Shown here: piece after piece, positions 3,194-38,399 of the stretch
How positions within the stretch are numbered: position 1 is the first letter of the stretch
Layout of the letters: every line of letters begins with the position of its first letter
DNA from: Candidatus Doudnabacteria bacterium
Lineage (GTDB): Bacteria > Patescibacteriota > Doudnabacteria > UBA920 > O2-02-FULL-48-8
Direction of reading: 5' to 3'
Assembly (NCBI GenBank): GCA_023246005.1
Contig: JAHFJG010000008.1
Coordinates: forward strand, 1-54,408
Length of the DNA stretch: 54,408 nucleotides
Notes under the pieces: generated by a model
Database searches by the model: none
The model's input: only the letters and a program-made list of their open reading frames with translations
What the model was told of the DNA's origin: nothing
Made by a program: the position numbers and the translations under genes

Positions 3194-3340
3194 CCCCGTA
3201 TATCAACATCGATAATGGTTTTTAATTGCTTTTGCTTATAACCTTTGTTATTTATTATTGTTTAACGTTAATTAGTAAATTAAAAAATTTAGTTAGAAAA
3301 ACCATTTAAAAGGCAAAAGCATCGATGTTGTATTACGGGG
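3194..3340. repeat. Palindromic ~145-nt intergenic element, copy 1
   Basis: The 20-nt arms are CCCCGTATATCAACATCGAT (3194-3213) and ATCGATGTTGTATTACGGGG (3321-3340). Inner pairs are AATGGTTTTT/AAAAACCATT and GCTTTTGC/GCAAAAGC in crossed order. It is homologous to 35392-35532. Confidence 0.6.
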
Positions 3341-4830: not shown

Positions 4831-6477
4831 CTAATTTCTTATTACTGCGGGTTCCGAAAGTTCAACGGCGTGCTTGCGAATTTTCGGTGTGACATAAAAC
4901 TCCATATATTTGCCCAGCATCATACGGGTTTGCGCATCAATCGCAGGAAAAGATCCAAACACGCTCGACACAATTGGAGAAAAAATCCACTGCCAAACCA
5001 TAGAAAAAGATTTCCAGCGGCTGTATTCTTTTGGCCGAGGCGGCAGCAAGACAATATTGACATACATGGAAAAAATTAGGAAAAAAGTCGCAATGCTCAT
5101 TATAGCCTTAGTCAACACGGGTAAATTAAGGGCCAAAACCGTGGCGCCAAATCTAGCACCTCCAAAAACTAATGGCAGCCAACCTAAAACTGCAATCATG
5201 ATTGAAGCGGTGGCCCAAAAATAATGTCCTTCGAATAATCTTTCTCCCCAAACAAATTTTTTCCAGAACGGAATTTTTTTATTTTTGATAAGTTCCGGAA
5301 TAACCATAGGAATTTCCGTACATCCCCACGCCCACCGCCGCTTCTGTTTGTATTGGGCGACTAAAGTGCCGAGGTAACTGCTGCCTAGCACGGCATCCAT
5401 TGAAACGGGACTGTATAAAGGCTTGCTTCGATAATCTCCGTTAAAGTAAAGAAAACACTGCCAAAAAATGTGGGAATCATCTGGGATAATATCCGTTCGC
5501 CAAAAATTCACATCCACTAAAGTTTTAAAACTCATGGCATGAGAAGAAAACGTAATCAGCCGATCTGGCCTGGAAGCCTCGACTAATTGCCAAAAAGACG
5601 ATGAAATGGCAATAACCCTGGCCACAGCCGGTGTATCCCAAATATTATTGTGATACATAGGCATTGGCTGATAGCTTGATTGCAATGGTTTTTTGGCAGT
5701 CAGAAAATCGTAAGCCAGATGAGCAAAATAATTTGAAGCAACTGTGGTGTCAGAATCAAAGGCCGATATAATCACATTTTCATATGGAATCTGAAGCTCG
5801 TCTAAAAACTTTTGCGCCTGATGCGCGGCAAAGGTAAGATTGGCGCCTTTCACCTTTGCTTCCCCCTCGATTCCGTCTGGATGCACAGAAACTATAAATT
5901 TTAAAAACTTACTGCTGTATTTTTCATAAAGCAATCGGGCATTCTGCTGGGCAACTTCTCCGCCACGTTCTTCTGCGGCCAGCATGAAAATGATTTTGGA
6001 ATGATCATAATTCGCGCTGGCGCAAGATGAAACTGAACTTTCCAAAACTTCCAAACTTTCCTTGACTGTAGTTAAAATGATAATATGATATAATTTCCGC
6101 CAGTCAAAATTTCTATCTTTCGGAAGACTCAAGAGATTATCAAGCTGCCGTTTATATAACCGTCCAAAATTTTTGTTCGGCTGATTTACAAGCAATCCAG
6201 ACAAATAATTTATAAACTCGTCGGGTTGTTTCAGTTTCTCAAGCCACAAGGACCAATCAATTTGATTGTGCATTTTCAGCTCAAAGTACGAATACATCAA
6301 ATGAATGGCGACATTGCCGCCTTTCAAAAACCAATATAGATCAAACAGAATAATATAAATGGAAATCCAGACTGGGTGAAAATATGCCAAAAACGGCGAG
6401 CCGAGTAGCGTCGCCCATGTAAGCGTGCCTGGAAAAATTTCCAGAAATCTGACAAAAAAAGTTTTGTTAGCTTTCAT
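4831..6477 (-). CDS. Membrane-embedded family 2 glycosyltransferase (processive type)
   Basis: A GT-A core has AFDSDT and a Q-x-x-RW motif (QYKQKRRWAWG), flanked by TM helices. Confidence 0.8.
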   Translation of the reverse strand: MKANKTFFVRFLEIFPGTLTWATLLGSPFLAYFHPVWISIYIILFDLYWFLKGGNVAIHLMYSYFELKMHNQIDWSLWLEKLKQPDEFINYLSGLLVNQPNKNFGRLYKRQLDNLLSLPKDRNFDWRKLYHIIILTTVKESLEVLESSVSSCASANYDHSKIIFMLAAEERGGEVAQQNARLLYEKYSSKFLKFIVSVHPDGIEGEAKVKGANLTFAAHQAQKFLDELQIPYENVIISAFDSDTTVASNYFAHLAYDFLTAKKPLQSSYQPMPMYHNNIWDTPAVARVIAISSSFWQLVEASRPDRLITFSSHAMSFKTLVDVNFWRTDIIPDDSHIFWQCFLYFNGDYRSKPLYSPVSMDAVLGSSYLGTLVAQYKQKRRWAWGCTEIPMVIPELIKNKKIPFWKKFVWGERLFEGHYFWATASIMIAVLGWLPLVFGGARFGATVLALNLPVLTKAIMSIATFFLIFSMYVNIVLLPPRPKEYSRWKSFSMVWQWIFSPIVSSVFGSFPAIDAQTRMMLGKYMEFYVTPKIRKHAVELSEPAVIRN

Positions 6478-6847
6478 TCGCGATGATTAAAACAAGACTG
6501 GCCGCCAAAAAAATTAATTGGATTGCGACAGAAGCAATGTTTAAAAAATAAGATGCCAACTTTTCTTTTTTGTAAAAAAAACTAGCTACTAAAGCATTAA
6601 TCAAAAGCAAAATCAAAGCGACAAAAGGGATCAAATATATATACGTGCTTTTGCCCACAAGATCAGAGCCATAGACAACATTATAATGCAAAAGAATATA
6701 TCTATTTCCCGGCTTAATCTTGATGTATAATATTACCCAATGTATAATATTTATAAGCAAACAAATCCCCAAACTAACGGAGTTTAGCGGATCCGCAACA
6801 AACGACTTTTTTGAGGACAAAACCTCATTTAGTTTCGTGATAAACAT
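6467..6847 (-). CDS. Hypothetical integral membrane protein
   Basis: The start was chosen at ATG 6847 (MFITKL...) to avoid overlapping the divergent GT39 gene. The product has 3-4 TM helices. The stop overlaps the GT2 start. Confidence 0.45.
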   Translation of the reverse strand: MFITKLNEVLSSKKSFVADPLNSVSLGICLLINIIHWVILYIKIKPGNRYILLHYNVVYGSDLVGKSTYIYLIPFVALILLLINALVASFFYKKEKLASYFLNIASVAIQLIFLAASLVLIIANES

Positions 6848-26530: not shown

Positions 26531-27589
26531 TTACCTCGGAATTTGTTCAAACTCGGTTAGAACCAGGACATCTTTCAGCATTGGCAAATCCTCAAGCACA
26601 ATCCCAGTCCCCCGCACGACTGTGGTCAAAGGATCATCAGACACTGTCACTGGCATTTGGGTTTCTTCGGCAATTAGTTGATCCAAACCCCGAAGCAGCG
26701 CCCCGCCGCCAGCCAAAGTAATCCCTCGTTCCATGATGTCAGCCACCAGTTCAGGCGGAGTTTCTTCCACCACAGCTTTGATATTATTGACGATCAATTT
26801 AATCGAACGAGAAATGGCATGACGAATTTGATCATCTGTGACTTTGATTTCTTTTGGCAAGCCAGTAACCAGATCGCGCCCCCGGATCTCTGCCTTCAGC
26901 CGATCTTTCATTTGAATAGCCGAGCCAATTTTAATTTTGACTTCTTCGGCCGTCCTCTCTCCAACCAACAAATTAAATTCATCCCGCGCAAACTGAATAA
27001 TATTTTCATTCATCTCGTCTCCGGCCACGCGGATACTGCGCGAAGTCACAATCCCGCCAAGAGAAATCACGGCAATCTCTGCGGTCCCGCCGCCAATATC
27101 AACAATAAACGATCCTGCCGCGTCTTGTACAGGCAATCTTGCGCCTATGGCTGCGGCCATAGGTTCTTCGATCAAGAAAGCCATACGAGCTCCTGCATTG
27201 AGTGCCGCGTCCTGAACCGCTCGTTTTTCAACTTCGGTCACTCCTGAAGGAATACCAATCACTACTCGCGGTCGAGACAAAAAACCAAAGGTCGCTTGGC
27301 TAACCTTATCTATAAAATACCGGAGCATCTGTTCGGTAACTTCAAAGTCCGAAATCACGCCATCAACCAGGGGCCGGTGCGCGACGATGTGAGAAGGTGT
27401 GCGGCCGACCATGCGTTTGGCTTCATCGCCAATCGCCAAAATCTGCTTAGTCTTTTGGTTAATCGCCACCACAGATGGCTCATTAATAACAATACCCTTG
27501 CCTTTGACATAAACAAGAGTATTGGCTGTACCCAGATCAATTCCAATGTCTTTCGAAAATTTATCAAAAACGAAGTCTAATATCGCCAT
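26531..27589 (-). CDS. mreB: Rod shape-determining protein MreB
   Basis: Actin-fold protein with the motifs DLGTANTLVY and DIGGGTAEIAV. Confidence 0.95.
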   Translation of the reverse strand: MAILDFVFDKFSKDIGIDLGTANTLVYVKGKGIVINEPSVVAINQKTKQILAIGDEAKRMVGRTPSHIVAHRPLVDGVISDFEVTEQMLRYFIDKVSQATFGFLSRPRVVIGIPSGVTEVEKRAVQDAALNAGARMAFLIEEPMAAAIGARLPVQDAAGSFIVDIGGGTAEIAVISLGGIVTSRSIRVAGDEMNENIIQFARDEFNLLVGERTAEEVKIKIGSAIQMKDRLKAEIRGRDLVTGLPKEIKVTDDQIRHAISRSIKLIVNNIKAVVEETPPELVADIMERGITLAGGGALLRGLDQLIAEETQMPVTVSDDPLTTVVRGTGIVLEDLPMLKDVLVLTEFEQIPR

Positions 27590-29268: not shown

Positions 29269-29308
29269 ATTCTACGCATTTTGACCGATCGGTCAATTTA
29301 CGTATAAT
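29269..29308. promoter_or_regulatory. Palindromic operator TTGACCGATCGGTCAA with -10-like hexamers on both sides (3' of the regulator gene)
   Basis: A perfect 16-bp palindrome lies at 29281-29296. On the + strand TTGACC-16-TATAAT ends at 29303-29308. On the - strand TTGACC-16-TAGAAT ends at 29274-29269. Confidence 0.55.
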
Positions 29309-29319
29309 TCTATTTATCA

Positions 29320-29841
29320 CTATTTGTACATTACTCTACCTTCAATAATACTGACATTAAGCTCAATCTTTAACTCTTTCAACAACTCTTTAAATTCAGG
29401 ATGTAATTCCCAAGGTCCGATCATTACGCTTTTTTGTAAATTAATAAATCCATTATCTTTTAGAAACCTTCTCAAGAACCTTCTTGCTTTGCGCTTGGCT
29501 TCAGGAATATCAAATATAACGATTGTTGCGAAACCGTTGACTTTAGTAATTTTCGGCTTCTTCGAATATGAATATTTCAAACTTTTGGCTCTGCCTAAAT
29601 CAGTGATAGTATAATAAAATTTCTTGTCCTTTTTGACTTTCTTGATTAAACCTTTTCTATTCAATTCCCAAAATGCCCGGGAAACCTTATATCGATCGTA
29701 ATAACGTAGTCTTTGAATGTGATGATTCTTGCCTTCGAATGGATAAGGAATCGCTTCCCCAATATCTCTCAAAAACCACAAAATCTCGTTTGTGACCGAC
29801 TCAACCCTATTTCTTATTTTCCTTTTAGTTGATCTGTTCAT
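29320..29841 (-). CDS. wHTH + Cas2/VapD-like-fold regulator (PaaX-like), paralog 1
   Basis: It has a winged-helix segment (YKVSRAFWELNRKGLIKK...YYTITDLGRAK) and a ferredoxin-like module (TIVIFDIPE..RRFLRRFLKDNGFINLQKSVMIG..VSIIEG). It is a paralog of 34756-35229. Confidence 0.7.
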   Translation of the reverse strand: MNRSTKRKIRNRVESVTNEILWFLRDIGEAIPYPFEGKNHHIQRLRYYDRYKVSRAFWELNRKGLIKKVKKDKKFYYTITDLGRAKSLKYSYSKKPKITKVNGFATIVIFDIPEAKRKARRFLRRFLKDNGFINLQKSVMIGPWELHPEFKELLKELKIELNVSIIEGRVMYK

Positions 29842-29845
29842 ATCA

Positions 29846-29885
29846 AGTATACGTGTTTTGACCGATCGGATATTTTACGTATAAA
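29846..29885. promoter_or_regulatory. Operator/promoter region upstream of paralog 1
   Basis: The 27-nt core at 29858-29884 matches 29281-29307 at 24/27 positions, in direct orientation. On the - strand a TATACT -10 lies 4 nt before the ATG. On the + strand there is TTGACC-16-TATAAA. Confidence 0.5.
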
Positions 29886-33512: not shown

Positions 33513-33550
33513 TTTATGTTGCACATTCCGTGCATGAAGGAGGAATATGC

Positions 33551-34039
33551 TTGAAGGGCATGATCGTTTACTCATTCGCTTGGCGAAAAAAAGGACACAG
33601 TCCTTGCAATATTCGCTTAGCAGAAGGAGCTAAGCGAATCATCGAAGCCCAGGACGAACCAGTTTTGGTTTTCGCCCAGCGCACTACAGCGCTGGTTCTC
33701 AAAGAGCTTAGCGTGGAATGTCAGATCGTACCGAAGCGGTCAAGTTACGAAGGATCCGAAGTGCTCACTCGGCAGCCCGCAGAGGTATTTAAGGAAAACG
33801 GAATCACTGAAGTCATTCCCGTGGCTCAGCCGTTTCTGCAACTGACGAAGTGCATTCAACTGGTTCACAAGGAAGGTTTTCGGACTCCGTCGTTTTTCAA
33901 ACTCGTGTCCCTGATCGGTTGGATCGGATTTGATCGAGAATCAGTTCAACCTTGGACGCGAGGTCTGTTCCGGCTGGTGTTCTACACTGCCAGACAGATT
34001 CTGTTCAGCTACAAGCCACCGCCAGAACTTTCAGAATAA
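33551..34039 (+). CDS. Orphan protein D (~160 aa), G+C-enriched
   Basis: An AAGGAGG SD (33537-43) lies 7 nt before TTG 33551. Alternative starts are GTG 33530 and ATG 33560. Codon usage is foreign (CTG, CGG, CCG). Any DUF218/YdcF-like resemblance is only weak. Confidence 0.5.
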   Translation: MKGMIVYSFAWRKKGHSPCNIRLAEGAKRIIEAQDEPVLVFAQRTTALVLKELSVECQIVPKRSSYEGSEVLTRQPAEVFKENGITEVIPVAQPFLQLTKCIQLVHKEGFRTPSFFKLVSLIGWIGFDRESVQPWTRGLFRLVFYTARQILFSYKPPPELSE

Positions 34040-34180
34040 CCTCCACTCCGTTAGCAAAACGGGAAATGAGTAATTTGCTTTAGAGAATCTATTTCTTCTC
34101 AAACTCTCGAATGAATCGCTCAGGACTCGCGGCATGTCGCTGCGGTCCCCCGTCTGCGGACGGAGAGGGAGGGTAGGCCG

Positions 34181-34540
34181 ATGTCGAACCCGAACCTGGT
34201 GGCCCCGGAGCTCGAGACCCTGGCGCGCGACCTTTCGCAGTCGTCTTCCGTTGAGGTGTTCTACCTCGACGACCAAGGCGCACCGCAGAAGGCCGCGTAC
34301 TACTCCCAATCATTGGGGGACGCCGTCCGTATCGAGATGAAACCACACCTCGTGGTAACTCGTCAGATACAGGACGACTCCGACCCCGAGAGCTGGAGTA
34401 CCGAAGATGTTTCCATCCCACTCGAAAGAGTGCTGATGGCCAACATCTCGGTGAGCGATGAATGGGCTCCCTCCGGGGAGATCCAGTCATCGCAGTGGGT
34501 CAACGGCCCCCACGGCAAACTCCTGCGGCTCGTGCCGTAG
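34181..34540 (+). CDS. Orphan protein E (119 aa), strongly G+C-rich
   Basis: A GGGAGGG SD lies 7 nt before the ATG. G+C is 219/360, and 94/120 codons end in G/C by hand count, which is coding-type periodicity. No family was recognised. Confidence 0.65.
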   Translation: MSNPNLVAPELETLARDLSQSSSVEVFYLDDQGAPQKAAYYSQSLGDAVRIEMKPHLVVTRQIQDDSDPESWSTEDVSIPLERVLMANISVSDEWAPSGEIQSSQWVNGPHGKLLRLVP

Positions 34541-34576
34541 GAGTTCAGGGGACCCGCGGCAATCATGCAAAGTGCT

Positions 34577-34621
34577 GATGGGACATTCTCCCATCCCCGG
34601 CAACAGCTTGTCTGTTGCCGG
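34577..34621 (+). other. Two GC-rich hairpins in the 3' UTR of gene E
   Basis: The hairpins are GATGGGA/TCCCATC (34577-34595) and CCGGCAACAG/CTGTTGCCGG (34597-34621). They lie directly upstream of the terminator. Confidence 0.5.
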
Positions 34622-34626
34622 GCACG

Positions 34627-34672
34627 CCCCGTACCGTCCGCCTCCGGCGGACTGGTGCGGGGTTTTCTTTTT
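34627..34672 (+). terminator. Intrinsic terminator of the D-E operon
   Basis: The structure is CCCCGTACC-[GTCCGCC/GGCGGAC]-GGTGCGGGG followed by TTTTCTTTTT. It has the same architecture and tail as 29172-29222. Confidence 0.7.
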
Positions 34673-34724
34673 GCCCAAAATTATTACTAACTGATTATTA
34701 GTAATATATTACATATTGTCTATA

Positions 34725-34754
34725 TTTTTGTCCGATCGGTCAGTTTTTTAGACA
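34725..34754. promoter_or_regulatory. Operator unit 3' of regulator paralog 2
   Basis: TTTTTGTCCGATCGGTCA... matches 35246-35275 at 27/30 positions, in direct orientation. It ends 1 nt before the regulator's stop codon. Confidence 0.55.
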
Positions 34755-34755
34755 G

Positions 34756-35229
34756 CTAAAAATTATAGTTTATTTTTCCATCAATAATTGAAACATGTGG
34801 TCGAATATTTAATTCTTTAATTATTTGCTTAATATCATCAGTAACAATAAACGGCGCGATCAGTACGCTCTTTTGTAAGTTAATATAACCGCTTCTTTGC
34901 AAATGCCGACGAAAAATTGTGCGTTGCCTGGATTTTTCTTCAGGAATATCAAAAATTATAATGGTACTCAAGCCATCTTGCCTATTTCTTTTTTGGATTG
35001 GTTTATGTAGTAAGCCCCTGCCTTTTGCTGTTAAAAAATATGCGCTTCGACTTCCTGATTTTTTCTTTAAAATCATACCTCGTTTTTCTAGCCTATTAAG
35101 CGTAGCATAATAGGTTGCTCTTGGAATTGGCCTAAATCGCAATTTACCTGGAGGAGTGGTTATAAAAGTTAACAAGCCGTCCGCGGCCTCATCTATCATT
35201 TGTAGTAAATATTCGGCATAACTATTCAT
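34756..35229 (-). CDS. wHTH + Cas2/VapD-like-fold regulator (PaaX-like), paralog 2
   Basis: It has the motifs YYATLNRLEKRGMILKK...YFLTAKGR and TIIIFDIPE..RRHLQRSGYINLQKSVLIAP..VSIIDG. By eye it is about one-third identical to 29320-29841. Confidence 0.7.
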   Translation of the reverse strand: MNSYAEYLLQMIDEAADGLLTFITTPPGKLRFRPIPRATYYATLNRLEKRGMILKKKSGSRSAYFLTAKGRGLLHKPIQKRNRQDGLSTIIIFDIPEEKSRQRTIFRRHLQRSGYINLQKSVLIAPFIVTDDIKQIIKELNIRPHVSIIDGKINYNF

Positions 35230-35235
35230 ACATTG

Positions 35236-35277
35236 ATTGTATAATTTTTTGTCCGATCGGTCAATATTTTATACATT
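35236..35277. promoter_or_regulatory. Divergent promoters sharing the palindromic operator of paralog 2
   Basis: On the - strand TTGACC (35264-59) is followed by a 17-nt spacer and TACAAT (35241-36), with the ATG 6 nt downstream (leaderless). On the + strand TTGTCC (35249-54) is followed by a 17-nt spacer and TACATT (35272-77). Confidence 0.55.
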
Positions 35278-35308
35278 GTCACAAATCTTAATAGATAAAA
35301 TCGACAAA

Positions 35309-35378
35309 AATCAGTAGGTTCTTTTGGATTGATCCTGCAACACTTTTGCGAGGTTCAACTGAACTTACTGATTTTTTT
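35309..35378. terminator. Bidirectional long-range hairpin (13 bp) flanked by A-run and T-run
   Basis: AATCAGTAGGTTC (35309-21) pairs with GAACTTACTGATT (35361-73), with one G-T pair and a 39-nt loop. AAAAA lies upstream and TTTTTTT downstream. Confidence 0.5.
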
Positions 35379-35391
35379 CGTGCGAATTAGG

Positions 35392-35532
35392 CCCAGTATA
35401 TCAACTTCGATAATGGTCTGTCTGCTTTTGCGATCTAGTAAAATTAAACTCTCAATTTTACGTCGATGAACGATCTAGCTTTGATCGGTCCAACCATTTG
35501 AACGCAAAAGCGATCGAAGTTGTATTACTGGG
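35392..35532. repeat. Palindromic ~145-nt intergenic element, copy 2
   Basis: The arms are CCCAGTATATCAACTTCGAT (35392-411) and ATCGAAGTTGTATTACTGGG (35513-32). Inner pairs are AATGGT/ACCATT and GCTTTTGCG/CGCAAAAGC in the same crossed order as copy 1. Confidence 0.6.
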
Positions 35533-35664
35533 TGGGCTTAACCATAATCAGCTTAGATTATCAAAATTTGAGCGTCAAAATAATTTATTATTTATCAAAA
35601 ATATAGCTTTTTTCATAGCGCTGTGTAGAACCTGTGAGCAAACCGTGAGTAAGCAGTGGAGTGG

Positions 35665-35697
35665 ATCCCCGCTTTCGCGGGGATGGTTTTTATTTTT
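35665..35697 (+). terminator. Intrinsic terminator, + strand
   Basis: ATCCCCGC-TTTC-GCGGGGAT is followed by GGTTTTTATTTTT. There is no U-run on the opposite strand. Confidence 0.65.
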
Positions 35698-35725
35698 AAA
35701 ATGCTCAAAAATAAAAAACCAACTT

Positions 35726-35960
35726 AAAAACCACCTTACGGTGATTTTTAATTGAACCGGTGTGCTGCCAAACCCGCTAACTTCGCTCTTACGAACTCCA
35801 CTAGCCTGGGAATTGGTCCAAGAGGTTGCCCTTACTTGTTCTACACCCAAGTCGTTTCTTACTTAAGCGTACCAATTCGGATTCAACAGTGCCTGATCCT
35901 CGAACAGCCTTTTTAGAGCCGTCCTGCCTAATAAAGATTGCTCTTTACCAAGACCATGGT
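35726..35960 (-). ncRNA. Candidate ~235-nt structured RNA of unknown class
   Basis: A consensus promoter lies upstream and a GNRA-capped hairpin plus U5 lies at the 3' end. Several hairpins can be drawn by hand, including UAAAGA-GCAA-UCUUUA and a 38-nt CCC..GCUA..UUCG/CGAA..UAGC..GGG stem. The only ORF runs through two terminators. Confidence 0.55.
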
Positions 35961-35966
35961 GAAAGC

Positions 35967-35996: not shown

Positions 35997-36025
35997 GAAA
36001 AATAAAAACCTATGCAAATCATAGG
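35997..36025 (-). terminator. Intrinsic terminator downstream of the second mreB
   Basis: On the minus strand CCUAUG-AUUUG-CAUAGG is followed by UUUUUAUUUUUU. Confidence 0.6.
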
Positions 36026-36038
36026 ATTTAAAGATTTT

Positions 36039-36090
36039 TTATCCAAATTGTGCATAAACTGTGCGTAAACTTTGGATAATTTGTGCAGAA
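36039..36090. promoter_or_regulatory. Cluster of five DnaA-box-like 9-mers
   Basis: TTATCCAAA (36039-47) and its inverse TTTGGATAA (36071-79) have one mismatch each to TTATCCACA. The + strand also reads TGTGCATAA, TGTGCGTAA and TGTGCAGAA, the reverse complements of TTATGCACA, TTACGCACA and TTCTGCACA. Confidence 0.3.
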
Positions 36091-36136: not shown

Positions 36137-37144
36137 CTATTTACTAGCCAAAATGCTCTTTTTGTAACTATCCAAATTATCCAAAGCCACGCCAGTGCCT
36201 TTCACAACGCACAAAATCGCGTCTTCAGCCACATAAGCTGGCACCCCGGTTGATTGGCCAATTAGTTTATCCAAATTTTTCAGCAAAGCAGTGCCGCCGG
36301 TCAGAACCATACCCTTGTCTATAATGTCTGCTGCCAATTCAGGCGGGGTTTCCTGCAGGACAGAACGAATGGCTTTGATTATTTCTCTAAGTTCTTCTTG
36401 AATGGCTTCCACGACTTCGTTTGTGGAAATTGTCACAGTCTTGGGCAAACCTTGCAGCATATCGCGCCCACGGATTTCCATGGTCAGTTCTTTTTCCACT
36501 GGCATGGCCGAGCCAATTCTGATTTTAATTTCTTCAGCCGTTCTGTCCCCCACTGCCAAACCGTATTTTTTTTTGATAAAATCCGCAATCGCCTGGTCCA
36601 TTTTATTACCCGCTACCCGCACAGAGGTTTGAGTGACAATACCGCCAAGGGACAGAATCGCCACATCAGTCGTCCCGCCGCCCATATCTATAACCATATT
36701 GCCAGAGGCTGCAGAAATATCAATGCCAGCGCCAATAGCCGCGGCCACTGTTTCCTTAATTACAAAAGCCGCTTTTGCCCCTGCGGCTTGAGCCGCGTCA
36801 ATCACGGCCCGGCGTTCCGTGGAGGTAATGCCTCCTGGAACTGAAATCATGACTTCTGGGCGAAAAAATCTGACATTGCCAACGGTCTTGTTTATAAAAT
36901 AACGAAGCATAGCTTCGGTTATGCGATAATCAGCAATCACACCATCCTTCATTGGTCGATGCGCTACAATCGTATCAGGAGTCCGCCCCAGCATTTCTTT
37001 GGCTTCCGCTCCCACAGCCAAAATTCGATTATCAATAATCGAAATCGCAACCACGGTTGGCTCGTTGATGACTATGCCTTTTTTCGGCACATAAACTAAG
37101 GTGTTGGCTGTGCCTAAATCAATCCCAATCTTTTTTAAAAACAT
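36137..37144 (-). CDS. MreB-like actin homolog (second paralog)
   Basis: The start was chosen at ATG 37144 (MFLKKIGIDLGTANTLVY). It has the motif DMGGGTTDVAIL. It lies downstream of murA-murB. Confidence 0.88.
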   Translation of the reverse strand: MFLKKIGIDLGTANTLVYVPKKGIVINEPTVVAISIIDNRILAVGAEAKEMLGRTPDTIVAHRPMKDGVIADYRITEAMLRYFINKTVGNVRFFRPEVMISVPGGITSTERRAVIDAAQAAGAKAAFVIKETVAAAIGAGIDISAASGNMVIDMGGGTTDVAILSLGGIVTQTSVRVAGNKMDQAIADFIKKKYGLAVGDRTAEEIKIRIGSAMPVEKELTMEIRGRDMLQGLPKTVTISTNEVVEAIQEELREIIKAIRSVLQETPPELAADIIDKGMVLTGGTALLKNLDKLIGQSTGVPAYVAEDAILCVVKGTGVALDNLDSYKKSILASK

Positions 37145-37145
37145 G

Positions 37146-38399
37146 CTAGTCTTCTCTCTTAATGTCTGCTCCAATTGCGCTCAAACGTTCCTCAAGATTT
37201 TCATATCCTCTATCCACGTGCTCAACCCCTTCAATTTCCGATTCCCCAGAAGCTGTCAGGGCCGCGATAACCAAGGTGATTCCCATTCGCAAATCATAGC
37301 TAGTTATTTTAGCAGAATGCAGGGGAGTTGGGCCAGTAATTTTTACTCGATGCGGATCCAAGACTTGAACATTGGCTCCCATTTTATTTAATTCCGGCAC
37401 ATAGCCAAGGCGGCTTTCATACATCCACTCGTCAAACAACGATTCGCCTTGGGCTTGGGTTGCTAAAACAGCCATAGGCGGCATGAAGTCTGAATTCAAC
37501 TTTGGATAAAATCCGCACTGAATTTTGGTCGCTTGATAATCGCTTTTGGGTTCAAAAACTTCCACAGAATCTTTATTAACAGCGAAATTGACATTCATTT
37601 TCCTAAGCTTGAGCAAGTAATCTTCTAAATTTTCTGAATTGAGTTTGGATATCTTAATGTGACTCTTCGTGGCTGCTGCCAGCGTTATGAAACTGGCAGC
37701 TTCTTCGCCGTCAGCAATTATCTTCAGATCTACGCCACTTAATTTTTTCACACCCTCAATAATAATCGTCGGCGTGCCGAAACCAGAAATTTTTGCTCCC
37801 ATCTTTTCGAGCATGGCGCCCAAACACTGGACATGCGGTTCCATAGCCGCCAGCCTAATCACAGTCTTGTCAGTTGCTAGGCTGGCGGCCATCATGGCAT
37901 TTTCTGTAGCAGTGACAGAGGTTTCTTCAAGGACAATTTTACTTCCTTGCAAATTTTGCGCATTAAATTCTACCACTTCGCCGACTTTCACTTCAACCCC
38001 CAAATCTTTCAAGGCCGCAATGTGCGTGTCGATTGGCCTAACTCCAATTTTATCCCCGCCTGGGTGCGGAAGCGAGACTTTCCTTGCCCGTCCGACCAGC
38101 GGCCCAACTAGTAGTATTGAACCGCGGAGTTTGGAAACTAGTTCTGGATTTAAATTCGTTTTAACCAAATTTTTCGCTTCAATCAAAACTTCATGATCCC
38201 GCACTTCGACTTTTACGCCTAAGTCCCTTATGATTTCAGCCATTGTCATGACATCGCCGATCATTGGGACATTGGTTAAGCGGCAAGGCTCATCTGTCAG
38301 CAAACAAGCAGCCATGCAAGCCAGCACCGCATTCTTTGATCCGGATACTTCAATTTCCCCTTTCAAGTTTTTTCCGCCATTGATGATAAATTTGCTCAT
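37146..38399 (-). CDS. murA: UDP-N-acetylglucosamine 1-carboxyvinyltransferase
   Basis: The 417-aa product has the canonical MurA sequence (GSKNAVLA...; PGGDKIGVRPID). Confidence 0.95.
   Translation of the reverse strand: MSKFIINGGKNLKGEIEVSGSKNAVLACMAACLLTDEPCRLTNVPMIGDVMTMAEIIRDLGVKVEVRDHEVLIEAKNLVKTNLNPELVSKLRGSILLVGPLVGRARKVSLPHPGGDKIGVRPIDTHIAALKDLGVEVKVGEVVEFNAQNLQGSKIVLEETSVTATENAMMAASLATDKTVIRLAAMEPHVQCLGAMLEKMGAKISGFGTPTIIIEGVKKLSGVDLKIIADGEEAASFITLAAATKSHIKISKLNSENLEDYLLKLRKMNVNFAVNKDSVEVFEPKSDYQATKIQCGFYPKLNSDFMPPMAVLATQAQGESLFDEWMYESRLGYVPELNKMGANVQVLDPHRVKITGPTPLHSAKITSYDLRMGITLVIAALTASGESEIEGVEHVDRGYENLEERLSAIGADIKRED

Follow-up and report, generated by a model that had tools for sequence, protein, structure and literature searches.

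What is encoded in the spacer that follows mreB2 in the genome of a Candidatus Doudnabacteria bacterium? The stretch analysed here is the whole contig JAHFJG010000008.1 of assembly GCA_023246005.1 (54,408 nt, referred to below as the window). An initial annotation had marked positions 35726-35960 of its - strand as a structured RNA of about 235 nt that is delimited by its own promoter and terminator, belongs to no recognisable class and is unlikely to be a cis-regulatory leader. Our data show that the interval is a single-copy gene, insulated and strongly transcribed, whose product is a conserved, branched RNA with covariation and without a match to any described family. The RNA is a good candidate for a new RNA class, within the limits of an incomplete coverage of the literature.

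An RNA gene with its own promoter and terminator

The gene is delimited by the following features:

35999..36030, - strand: intrinsic terminator closing the mreB2 unit, made of an A-run, a hairpin (stem 36025-36009) and the T-run TTTTTATTTT
35995-35967, - strand: sigma-70-type promoter with -35 TTGACC (35995-35990), a 17-nt spacer and -10 TATAAT (35972-35967)
35961-35724, - strand: primary transcript of the structured RNA, 238 nt, placed by promoter, terminator and contig ends
35953..35960, - strand: self-complementary 5' segment ACCAUGGU, 8 nt, RNA positions +2 to +9
35751-35724, - strand: intrinsic terminator of the RNA gene, UUAAAAAUCACC-GUAA-GGUGGUUUUUAA with a U-rich tail

The near-consensus promoter that had been predicted right after the mreB2 terminator is borne out, since TTGACC-17-TATAAT at 35995-35967 (- strand) scores 11/12 and is the top site of the region. 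It is present in 9/9 loci (the window and the relatives described below), with TTGAC at -34 or -35 and TTTCTAtAAT kept, and a wider block, TTTCTATAATG, is conserved as well. The mreB2 terminator shows compensatory changes among relatives and insulates the RNA gene from transcription of mreB2 and from other upstream transcription. At the far end the terminator hairpin, drawn at first as CACC-GUAA-GGUG, turned out to have a longer stem, UUAAAAAUCACC/GGUGGUUUUUAA, followed by a T run; it was found in all nine homologues, again with compensatory changes.

Between these signals the G+C content is 0.435, versus about 0.345 in the adjoining spacer windows on both sides, in agreement with the enrichment noticed earlier. 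The interval folds with a minimum free energy of -82.4 kcal/mol (z = -4.4, 0/200 shuffles as good). Open reading frames (ORFs) overlapping the RNA have no family match, and comparison of its six reading frames with a collection of 5.8 billion proteins gave a sole match, to an MreB of a strain near L001 (the closest relative, see below) whose reading continues into the RNA and for which no contig is recorded. The next same-strand gene begins at 35229, 495 nt beyond the RNA, which confirms the gap of about 500 nt that had been estimated.

Evidence for transcription comes from assembled contigs of public runs sharing 31-mers with the locus. These comprise, from one groundwater study, libraries of both DNA and RNA, and also numerous metatranscriptomes of soil, rhizosphere, freshwater and wastewater. 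Four groundwater metatranscriptomes were used to survey the 26-42 kb part of the window. The metatranscriptome that shares its sample with the DNA run yields 335 contigs mapping to 35751-35960 but not a single one on mreB2 or the spacer; the summed k-mer depth is about 5x10^4 with variants included and at most 2.3x10^4 at >=99% identity, while that of the same-sample DNA is 9-13. Across the 26-42 kb surveyed (16 kb, about fifteen genes) the RNA is the sole spot with transcript contigs in four independent runs, and its abundance is thousands of times that of the neighbouring mRNAs. RNA sequencing, proposed in the initial annotation as a check, thus reveals massive and selective expression with a 5' end at 35961.

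This end is defined by two exact-match contigs from two runs, which stop at 35961 and continue with untemplated G's and sequencing adapter. It fits the promoter, because it lies 6 nt past the -10 box. The lowest base covered is 35749, which adjoins the other adapter, and all adapter junctions have the same orientation. The contigs being strandless, the strand was assigned from the polarity of promoter and terminator together with adapter orientation. We infer a - strand RNA of 238 nt running from 35961 to about 35724; 3' trimming may yield a mature form of about 213 nt (35961-35749), or the terminator stem may be under-represented. No read-through coverage beyond the RNA terminator was found in the runs examined.

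Variants of 80-99% identity are present in soil, rhizosphere, freshwater and wastewater transcriptomes. A 164-nt low-depth contig about 88% identical to the RNA also occurs in run X11, a transcriptome labelled as that of a single organism, and hints at a Doudnabacteria-like organism present there as an associate or a contaminant.

A branched fold supported by covariation

The consensus structure was obtained with RNAalifold on an independent MAFFT alignment of nine genomic homologues, flanks included. It consists of seven helices with three GNRA loops and 78 pairs, 35 of them with compensatory changes. Pairing is kept in 95.1% of the alignment cells, compared with 85.1 +/- 0.8 in shuffles, and the 35 double-change pairs stand against 17.0 +/- 2.7 in shuffles (0/500 reach 35) and no more than 14 when partners are slid by 1-3 columns. 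Compensatory changes therefore exceed both the shuffle and the slide controls, as in a conserved structured RNA, and the analysis of covariation over homologues that had been suggested at the outset comes out in favour of a conserved structure. A second alignment, of 24 partial variants rebuilt from contig difference tables and loose ends of eleven runs, supports the same structure with 95.9% of cells paired and 22 double-change pairs versus 10.3 +/- 2.2 in shuffles; this result is supporting only, because the rebuilt sequences lean to the reference where differences are unlisted.

The folded core spans about 205 nt. Two 5' hairpins, H1 and H2, precede a domain closed by the long-range helix H3, which encloses a three-way junction with the arms H4 (branching into H5 and H6) and H7. 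GNRA tetraloops are found on H1, H6 and H7. In order along the RNA the elements are:

35927..35952, - strand: H1, 11-bp hairpin with the GNRA loop GCAA; stem sequence variable, 9/11 pairs changed on both sides
35902..35924, - strand: H2, GGACGGC..GCUGUUC with the A-rich loop CUCUAAAAAGG, then junction GA(N); 96-99% of cells paired, mostly one-sided changes
35879..35899, - strand: 5' strand of H3, with outer GGAUC[A]GG, internal loop CA(C) and the inner 11-bp part CUGUUGAAUCC
35810..35878, - strand: H4 domain, stem GAAUUGGU/ACCAAUUC carrying H5, junction GUAGAA and H6; the most conserved part of the RNA
35868-35845, - strand: H5, loop AAGAAAC; 5/8 pairs covarying
35838-35819, - strand: H6, CAAG-UA-AGG-GCAA-CCU-CUUG; nearly invariant
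35776..35805, - strand: H7, GCUAGU-GGA-GUUC-GUAA-GAGC-GAA-GUUAGC, with a purine-rich internal loop and a GNRA loop
35754..35775, - strand: 3' strand of H3, GGGUUUGGCAG, loop CACA, CCGGUUC

Covariation is carried mostly by H1, the inner part of H3, H5 and H7, while H2, the outer part of H3 and H6 are uninformative in this respect because they are nearly invariant. The loop of H1 is GNRA (GCAA or GUAA) in all variants, and most relatives carry one extra base after 35900. Inner H3 is variable and 10-11 bp long, with 6 pairs showing compensatory changes; the outer part, GGAUC[A]GG/CCGGUUC, is invariant, and the motif (C/U)A(G/C)CACACCG is present in every homologue. In H7 all 5/5 counted outer pairs (helix 8 of the consensus) and 3/4 inner pairs (helix 9) are changed on both sides. 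A 120-nt core has more than 90% sequence conservation, the junction bases are conserved, and the H4 domain shows the fewest variants among hundreds of transcript contigs. This core is conserved in sequence far beyond the needs of pairing.

The consensus also allows the hairpins initially drawn by hand to be judged. The UAAAGA-GCAA-UCUUUA stem was right and belongs to H1, and the 8-bp stem GGACGGCU/GGCUGUUC was essentially right and corresponds to H2, conserved and with little covariation. Covariation contradicts the proposed ACUUG/CAAGU stem, whose two halves belong to different covarying helices: ACUUGGG to H5, as the 3' strand, and CAAG to H6, as the 5' strand. The 38-nt composite hairpin was half right. 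Its GCUAGU/GUUAGC stem is upheld, but covariation replaces UUCG/CGAA by GUUC-GUAA-GAGC as the inner stem and pairs the GGG with UCC of the long-range helix instead of CCC.

The 5' end adds a feature of a different kind. The ACCAUGGU segment is preserved as a palindrome through paired changes, reading ACGAUCGU in L001, ACUAUAGU in L164, AUCAUGGU in L171 and ACCAUUGGU in L168. Since the palindrome leaves no room for a loop, it points either to intermolecular pairing or to a palindrome that functions in DNA. Cofolding predicts an intermolecular 5' duplex for 8/9 homologues (ddG, the change in folding free energy, of -7 to -12 kcal/mol), and judging from these models the segment may be a dimerisation site.

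Homologues and genomic context

Homologues were gathered through mreB loci of genome and metagenome collections, and then from the contigs of MreB2 protein matches. The closest genome is a metagenome-assembled genome of Candidatus Doudnabacteria (L001), whose MreB2 is 90% identical. A search of 80 + 80 mreB loci (genome and metagenome collections) with nhmmer and the covariance model R1 detected the RNA in L001 only. The MreB2 protein search returned many Doudnabacteria proteins of 83-97% identity, and on the fetched contigs R1 located the RNA in L161, L162/163, L164/165, L166/167, L168, L170 and L171 (117-208 bits). Scores of the homologues overall (L001, L161-L168, L170, L171) are 117-236 bits, and the distinct homologues in other Doudnabacteria loci number eight, or ten with two duplicate assemblies. 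A second model, R2, was built from the nine genomic homologues (window plus eight). It gave no match on 78 other loci, among them mreB loci of the candidate phyla radiation (CPR) outside Doudnabacteria, and R1, with filters on or off, found no homologue at mreB loci outside Doudnabacteria. The family is so far known only from Candidatus Doudnabacteria (Patescibacteria/CPR). Among assemblies of this group, GCA_001780055.1, GCA_001777575.1 and GCA_039931165.1 have the RNA, and GCA_964605735.1 lacks it.

The RNA is single-copy and occupies one conserved chromosomal slot, mreB2 - RNA - variable inserts - holB, within the constant gene order PEGA - murB - murA-like - mreB2 - [RNA] - variable inserts - holB-like - BNR - frr - rseP; MreB2 of the relatives is 84-94% identical to that of the window. 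What follows the RNA varies by locus: a PaaX-like gene, a cupredoxin-like gene, hypothetical genes, or none. Because these inserts differ between loci, a cis role directed at a fixed downstream gene is unlikely. The comparison of contexts that was advised initially thus finds the RNA kept at the same slot with differing downstream content. The block of boxes (described below), terminator, promoter, RNA and terminator is intact despite 0.5-3.5 kb inserted after mreB2 in L164, L168, L170 and L171. One more locus, L169, has at 6440-6790 a box array, TTGACG-17-TATGAT and about 200 nt with a GUAA-capped hairpin and a strong terminator, and no R1 or R2 match there; either this sequence has replaced the RNA or it is a homologue that has diverged very far.

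The neighbours of the RNA gene in the window are ordinary housekeeping genes: murB, murA-like, mreB2, holB-like, frr and rseP, as well as a second mreB with mreC, mreD and PBP2, so that the window is part of the chromosome of a Patescibacteria/CPR bacterium. The two mreB paralogues lie at 26531-27589 (with mreC, mreD and PBP2) and at 36137-37174 (with murB and murA-like), and the RNA is linked only to the latter.

Several other elements were noticed in this and the equivalent spacers. A facing + strand terminator is found at 35665-35694 (ATCCCCGC-TTTC-GCGGGGAT and a T run), and no + strand gene or transcript was seen upstream of it. A 25-nt inverted repeat at 35302-35380 (84% complementary, 29-nt loop), just upstream of the promoter of the PaaX-like gene, is flanked by A and T runs in the manner of a bidirectional terminator. 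A long-hairpin element of about 140 nt is present in two copies (3194-3340 and 35392-35532) with arms CCCNGTATATCAACNTCGAT and complement (4 arm matches versus 0.05 expected), and partly in L001 at 6327-6488; it looks like a small repeated palindromic element similar to miniature inverted-repeat transposable or repetitive extragenic palindromic elements. Between the PaaX-like gene and holB, an island at 34090-34700 has 57-65% G+C (genome about 40%) and is lacking at this place in relatives. Its ORFs (34089-34490, - strand; 33530-34039, + strand) have no Pfam or NCBIfam match, no transcript contigs were seen on it, and it probably came in as foreign DNA. In L164 (5005-5580), L168 (5014-5640) and L171 (5065-5650), mreB2 and the box array are separated by about 500-600 nt of inserted, apparently non-coding sequence, which in L168 and L171 is relatively G+C-rich. 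The three inserts and the G+C-rich island of the window show no mutual similarity, and none of them has an Rfam match.

Possible regulation of the promoter

Upstream of the gene there is an array of potential DnaA boxes:

36039..36090, - strand (one box inverted): five DnaA-box-like 9-mers TTATNCACA (<=1 mismatch) within 52 nt, found by consensus match

Tandem - strand boxes at 36082-90, 36071-79, 36060-68 and 36049-57 follow each other in an exact 11-nt phase, and the inverted box is at 36039-47. The array precedes the insulating terminator and begins and ends some 130 and 80 nt, respectively, before the RNA start. All loci (9/9) have at least one box at about -85 to -97, 6/9 have 2-4 phased boxes, and the columns CACA..TTAT..CACA are invariant in the box region of relatives. 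From this sequence arrangement we infer that DnaA may modulate the RNA promoter. The array was also considered as oriC and rejected as a replication origin, because GC skew is negative over all 54 kb of the window and gene orientation is unswitched there.

A different regulator had been proposed initially, since the -35 box is embedded in a half-site, TTGACCGAT, of operators associated with winged helix-turn-helix (wHTH) proteins that resemble PaaX and Cas2. The half-site is indeed there. The complete 16-bp palindrome, TTGACCGATCGGTCAA, occurs with 0-3 mismatches at 29281-29296, 29858-29873, 34728-34743 and 35249-35264; these copies flank only the two PaaX/Cas2-like wHTH genes (29320-29841 and 34756-35229) and are likely an autoregulatory operator. 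Among relatives the bases after the -35 TTGAC vary (CGGC, CGCA, GCGT, CCCG, GTGA, ACTG). Membership of the RNA in this regulon is unsupported: relatives do not keep the CCGAT extension of the -35 box, only TTGAC being retained, and the full palindrome is restricted to the PaaX-like genes.

Searches for known RNA families

With Rfam 15 (4227 models) at gathering thresholds there are 0 matches in the 54 kb of the window and 0 on the RNA in the eight relatives. At E <= 10 nothing falls on the RNA in a search over 851 nt, and a search of the 221-nt core with the laxest filters gives only a 13-bit microRNA match and no model of 6S RNA, signal recognition particle (SRP) RNA, RNase P RNA, transfer-messenger RNA (tmRNA) or a riboswitch. 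The Rfam comparison recommended at the start thus agrees with the absence of a recognisable class. ARAGORN detects no tRNA or tmRNA in the window and no tmRNA in the eight relatives; neither a tRNA-like domain nor a tag reading frame, as expected of tmRNA, was found. A BTnc231 match on the + strand (35604-35751, E = 3e-5; 34.7 bits versus a gathering threshold of 80.4) was rejected as an artefact of back-to-back terminators and A/T runs. Neither exact-pattern scanning of viral contigs for the two best-conserved strings nor BLAST against phages and plasmids gave a match. In a literature search on non-coding RNAs of CPR/Patescibacteria and on the conserved strings, of incomplete coverage, no description of such an RNA was met. 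The locus does have the properties of an independent small-RNA gene: its own promoter, 5' end and terminator, no coding capacity and transcription.

What kind of RNA is it?

On balance we favour, with moderate confidence, a gene that stands alone and specifies a stably folded, highly abundant non-coding RNA of a family without a public model; the RNA probably acts in trans through its shape. The sigma-70 promoter sets the start at 35961, and terminators shield the gene on both sides. Such an RNA would work via its three-dimensional shape, as the scaffold of a ribonucleoprotein (RNP) or as a self-associating RNA, and not as an antisense regulator or a cis leader. Two molecules might pair head to head through the covarying self-complementary 5' end, and DnaA, hence the replication state, might tune synthesis of the RNA via the phased upstream array. 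The over-conserved core, the GNRA loops, the invariant junctions and the abundance make a scaffolding role in an RNP, ribozyme-like behaviour or self-association more plausible than a seed-pairing small regulatory RNA (sRNA) or a leader. A bolder proposal, which we advance only tentatively, is that this is the first member of a new RNA class of Doudnabacteria and maybe of the wider CPR: a compact, palindrome-paired homodimeric RNA or RNP of near-ribosomal abundance, coupled to DnaA, and perhaps a new ribozyme or an RNP essential to bacteria that are ultra-small and depend on a host.

A number of points count against this picture. The transcript contigs are strandless, strand being read from signal polarity and adapter orientation, and assembled-contig depth gauges abundance only roughly. 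The family came up only beside mreB2 and in one lineage, by sampling that was itself based on synteny, and no partner protein is tied to the RNA by synteny. L169 keeps the upstream signals and the same promoter slot and then continues with a different sequence of about 200 nt. The 5' palindrome could be a DNA operator at +2 to +9 instead, and the DnaA boxes were assigned by the 9-mer consensus alone.

The main rival, which we regard as unlikely, is a Doudnabacteria version of a universal RNA (6S, SRP or a miniaturised RNase P) that has diverged past detection by Rfam. Abundance and a strong promoter are typical of such RNAs, and yet no 6S, SRP, RNase P or tmRNA model matches at E = 10 and ARAGORN finds nothing. 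The 6S rod, with its end-paired closing stem, central bubble and terminal stem, is not what the covariation describes: the fold is branched, and H1 and H2 are free at the 5' end. The order of a hairpin and then a single-bulge long-range helix enclosing the rest loosely recalls P3/P4 of RNase P, and GGAUCAGG and GCAGCACACCGG resemble, by eye, motifs of RNase P and of SRP domain IV. However, RNase P RNA is marked by the conserved regions CR-I and CR-V, which form P4, and by similarity to the type A, B or T models, none of which matches here, and semi-global alignment to E. coli M1 RNA is no better than shuffles (z = -0.6). RNase P had been entertained on the basis of collinear short motifs and was demoted to a minor rival because the M1 alignment is at chance level and GGAUCAGG also occurs elsewhere in M1. 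SRP helix 8 would require a GNAR hairpin with the symmetric loop ..AGG../..AGCA.., whereas here the SRP-like strings are about 115 nt apart, not in one hairpin, and GCAGCAC becomes GUACCAC in L166. SRP RNA lies upstream of dnaX in Firmicutes and Actinobacteria, and the position of our RNA upstream of a clamp-loader gene is reminiscent of this synteny; that neighbour scores highest as holB (138.7 bits), followed by the dnaX N-terminus (114.2 bits), both below curated cut-offs.

The same gene architecture, with its own promoter and terminator, and the conserved single-stranded loops would also suit a base-pairing sRNA that hits mRNAs via the A-rich loops UCUAAAAAG and AAGAAAC. We find this distinctly improbable: a conserved 120-nt core with seven helices, three GNRA loops and conserved junction bases is unusual for seed-pairing sRNAs, its abundance is thousands-fold over neighbouring mRNAs, and no complementarity to a target came to light. 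It is very improbable that the RNA is a leader or riboswitch acting in cis, ultimately on holB, and accumulating in its terminated form. The RNA does end in an intrinsic terminator, a gene of L001 begins 16 nt past it, and holB is downstream in most loci. The immediate downstream gene, on the other hand, is not conserved, lies 220 to >2000 nt off and has promoters of its own; there is no read-through coverage, no riboswitch model match, and no antiterminator or other competing pairing that overlaps the terminator in the consensus fold. Expression, the 5' end, covariation, the variable downstream content and the lack of Rfam matches thus strongly support the original reading: an independent structured RNA of no recognisable class, bounded by its promoter and terminator, as opposed to a cis leader. 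As for an RNA of a mobile element or defence system (guide or scaffold, bridge RNA, retron RNA, antitoxin RNA), the spacer offers repeated long-hairpin elements, variable inserts and a G+C-rich island; the single copy in one conserved slot beside an MreB2 of 84-94% identity, the lack of a transposase, reverse transcriptase or nuclease partner nearby and the absence from the phage, plasmid and viral collections searched make it hardly credible.

Patescibacteria (CPR) make up a large and little-understood share of bacterial diversity, with tiny genomes and few cultured members. An RNA that exceeds all its neighbours in abundance by orders of magnitude and combines a conserved core with a complex covarying fold very likely has a central cellular role. 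New RNA classes of such kind are rare, and some earlier ones were ribozymes, RNP cores or self-assembling RNAs. For experiments the locus provides a defined 5' end as well as candidates for a dimerisation element and for a promoter under DnaA control. If the RNA were a remodelled 6S, SRP or RNase P RNA after all, current models would be missing a core RNA in a whole lineage.

Comparison with known RNAs

In size, extreme abundance (especially expected in slow-growing cells), stand-alone gene and strong sigma-70 promoter, the Doudnabacteria RNA resembles 6S RNA. The latter is rod-like and irregular, with paired ends and a large central bubble, whereas the former branches at a three-way junction, has two hairpins free at its 5' end and shows covariation in its branches. 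RNase P RNA is alike in having a hairpin followed by a bulged long-range closing helix, several GNRA loops, conserved junction nucleotides and high abundance; it is 330-400 nt long, while the RNA described here has about 205 nt and lacks P1, P2, P15, P18 and the GAGGAAAGUCC or ACAGAANCCGGCUUA blocks. OLE, ROOL and GOLLD, large RNAs which are reported to form homo-oligomers, are likewise abundant, ornate and non-coding, and possible self-association is a further likeness, suggested here by the self-complementary 5' end. Compared with them the Doudnabacteria RNA is much smaller, has no model similarity, and its self-association is a prediction only.

In general character the RNA is also like the raiA motif RNA and similar orphan structured non-coding RNAs such as Bacteroidales-1 and Chloroflexi-1. 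They share a length of about 200 nt, their own promoter and intrinsic terminator, a very high level, a multi-stem junction with many invariant bases, restriction to a lineage, and the lack of a known biochemical function. The Doudnabacteria RNA shows no sequence or covariance-model similarity to them (Rfam, E <= 10) and has another helix plan. It further differs from raiA-type RNAs in belonging to Patescibacteria and not to Firmicutes or Actinobacteria, in its covarying palindromic 5' end and in the DnaA-box-like array upstream of its gene.

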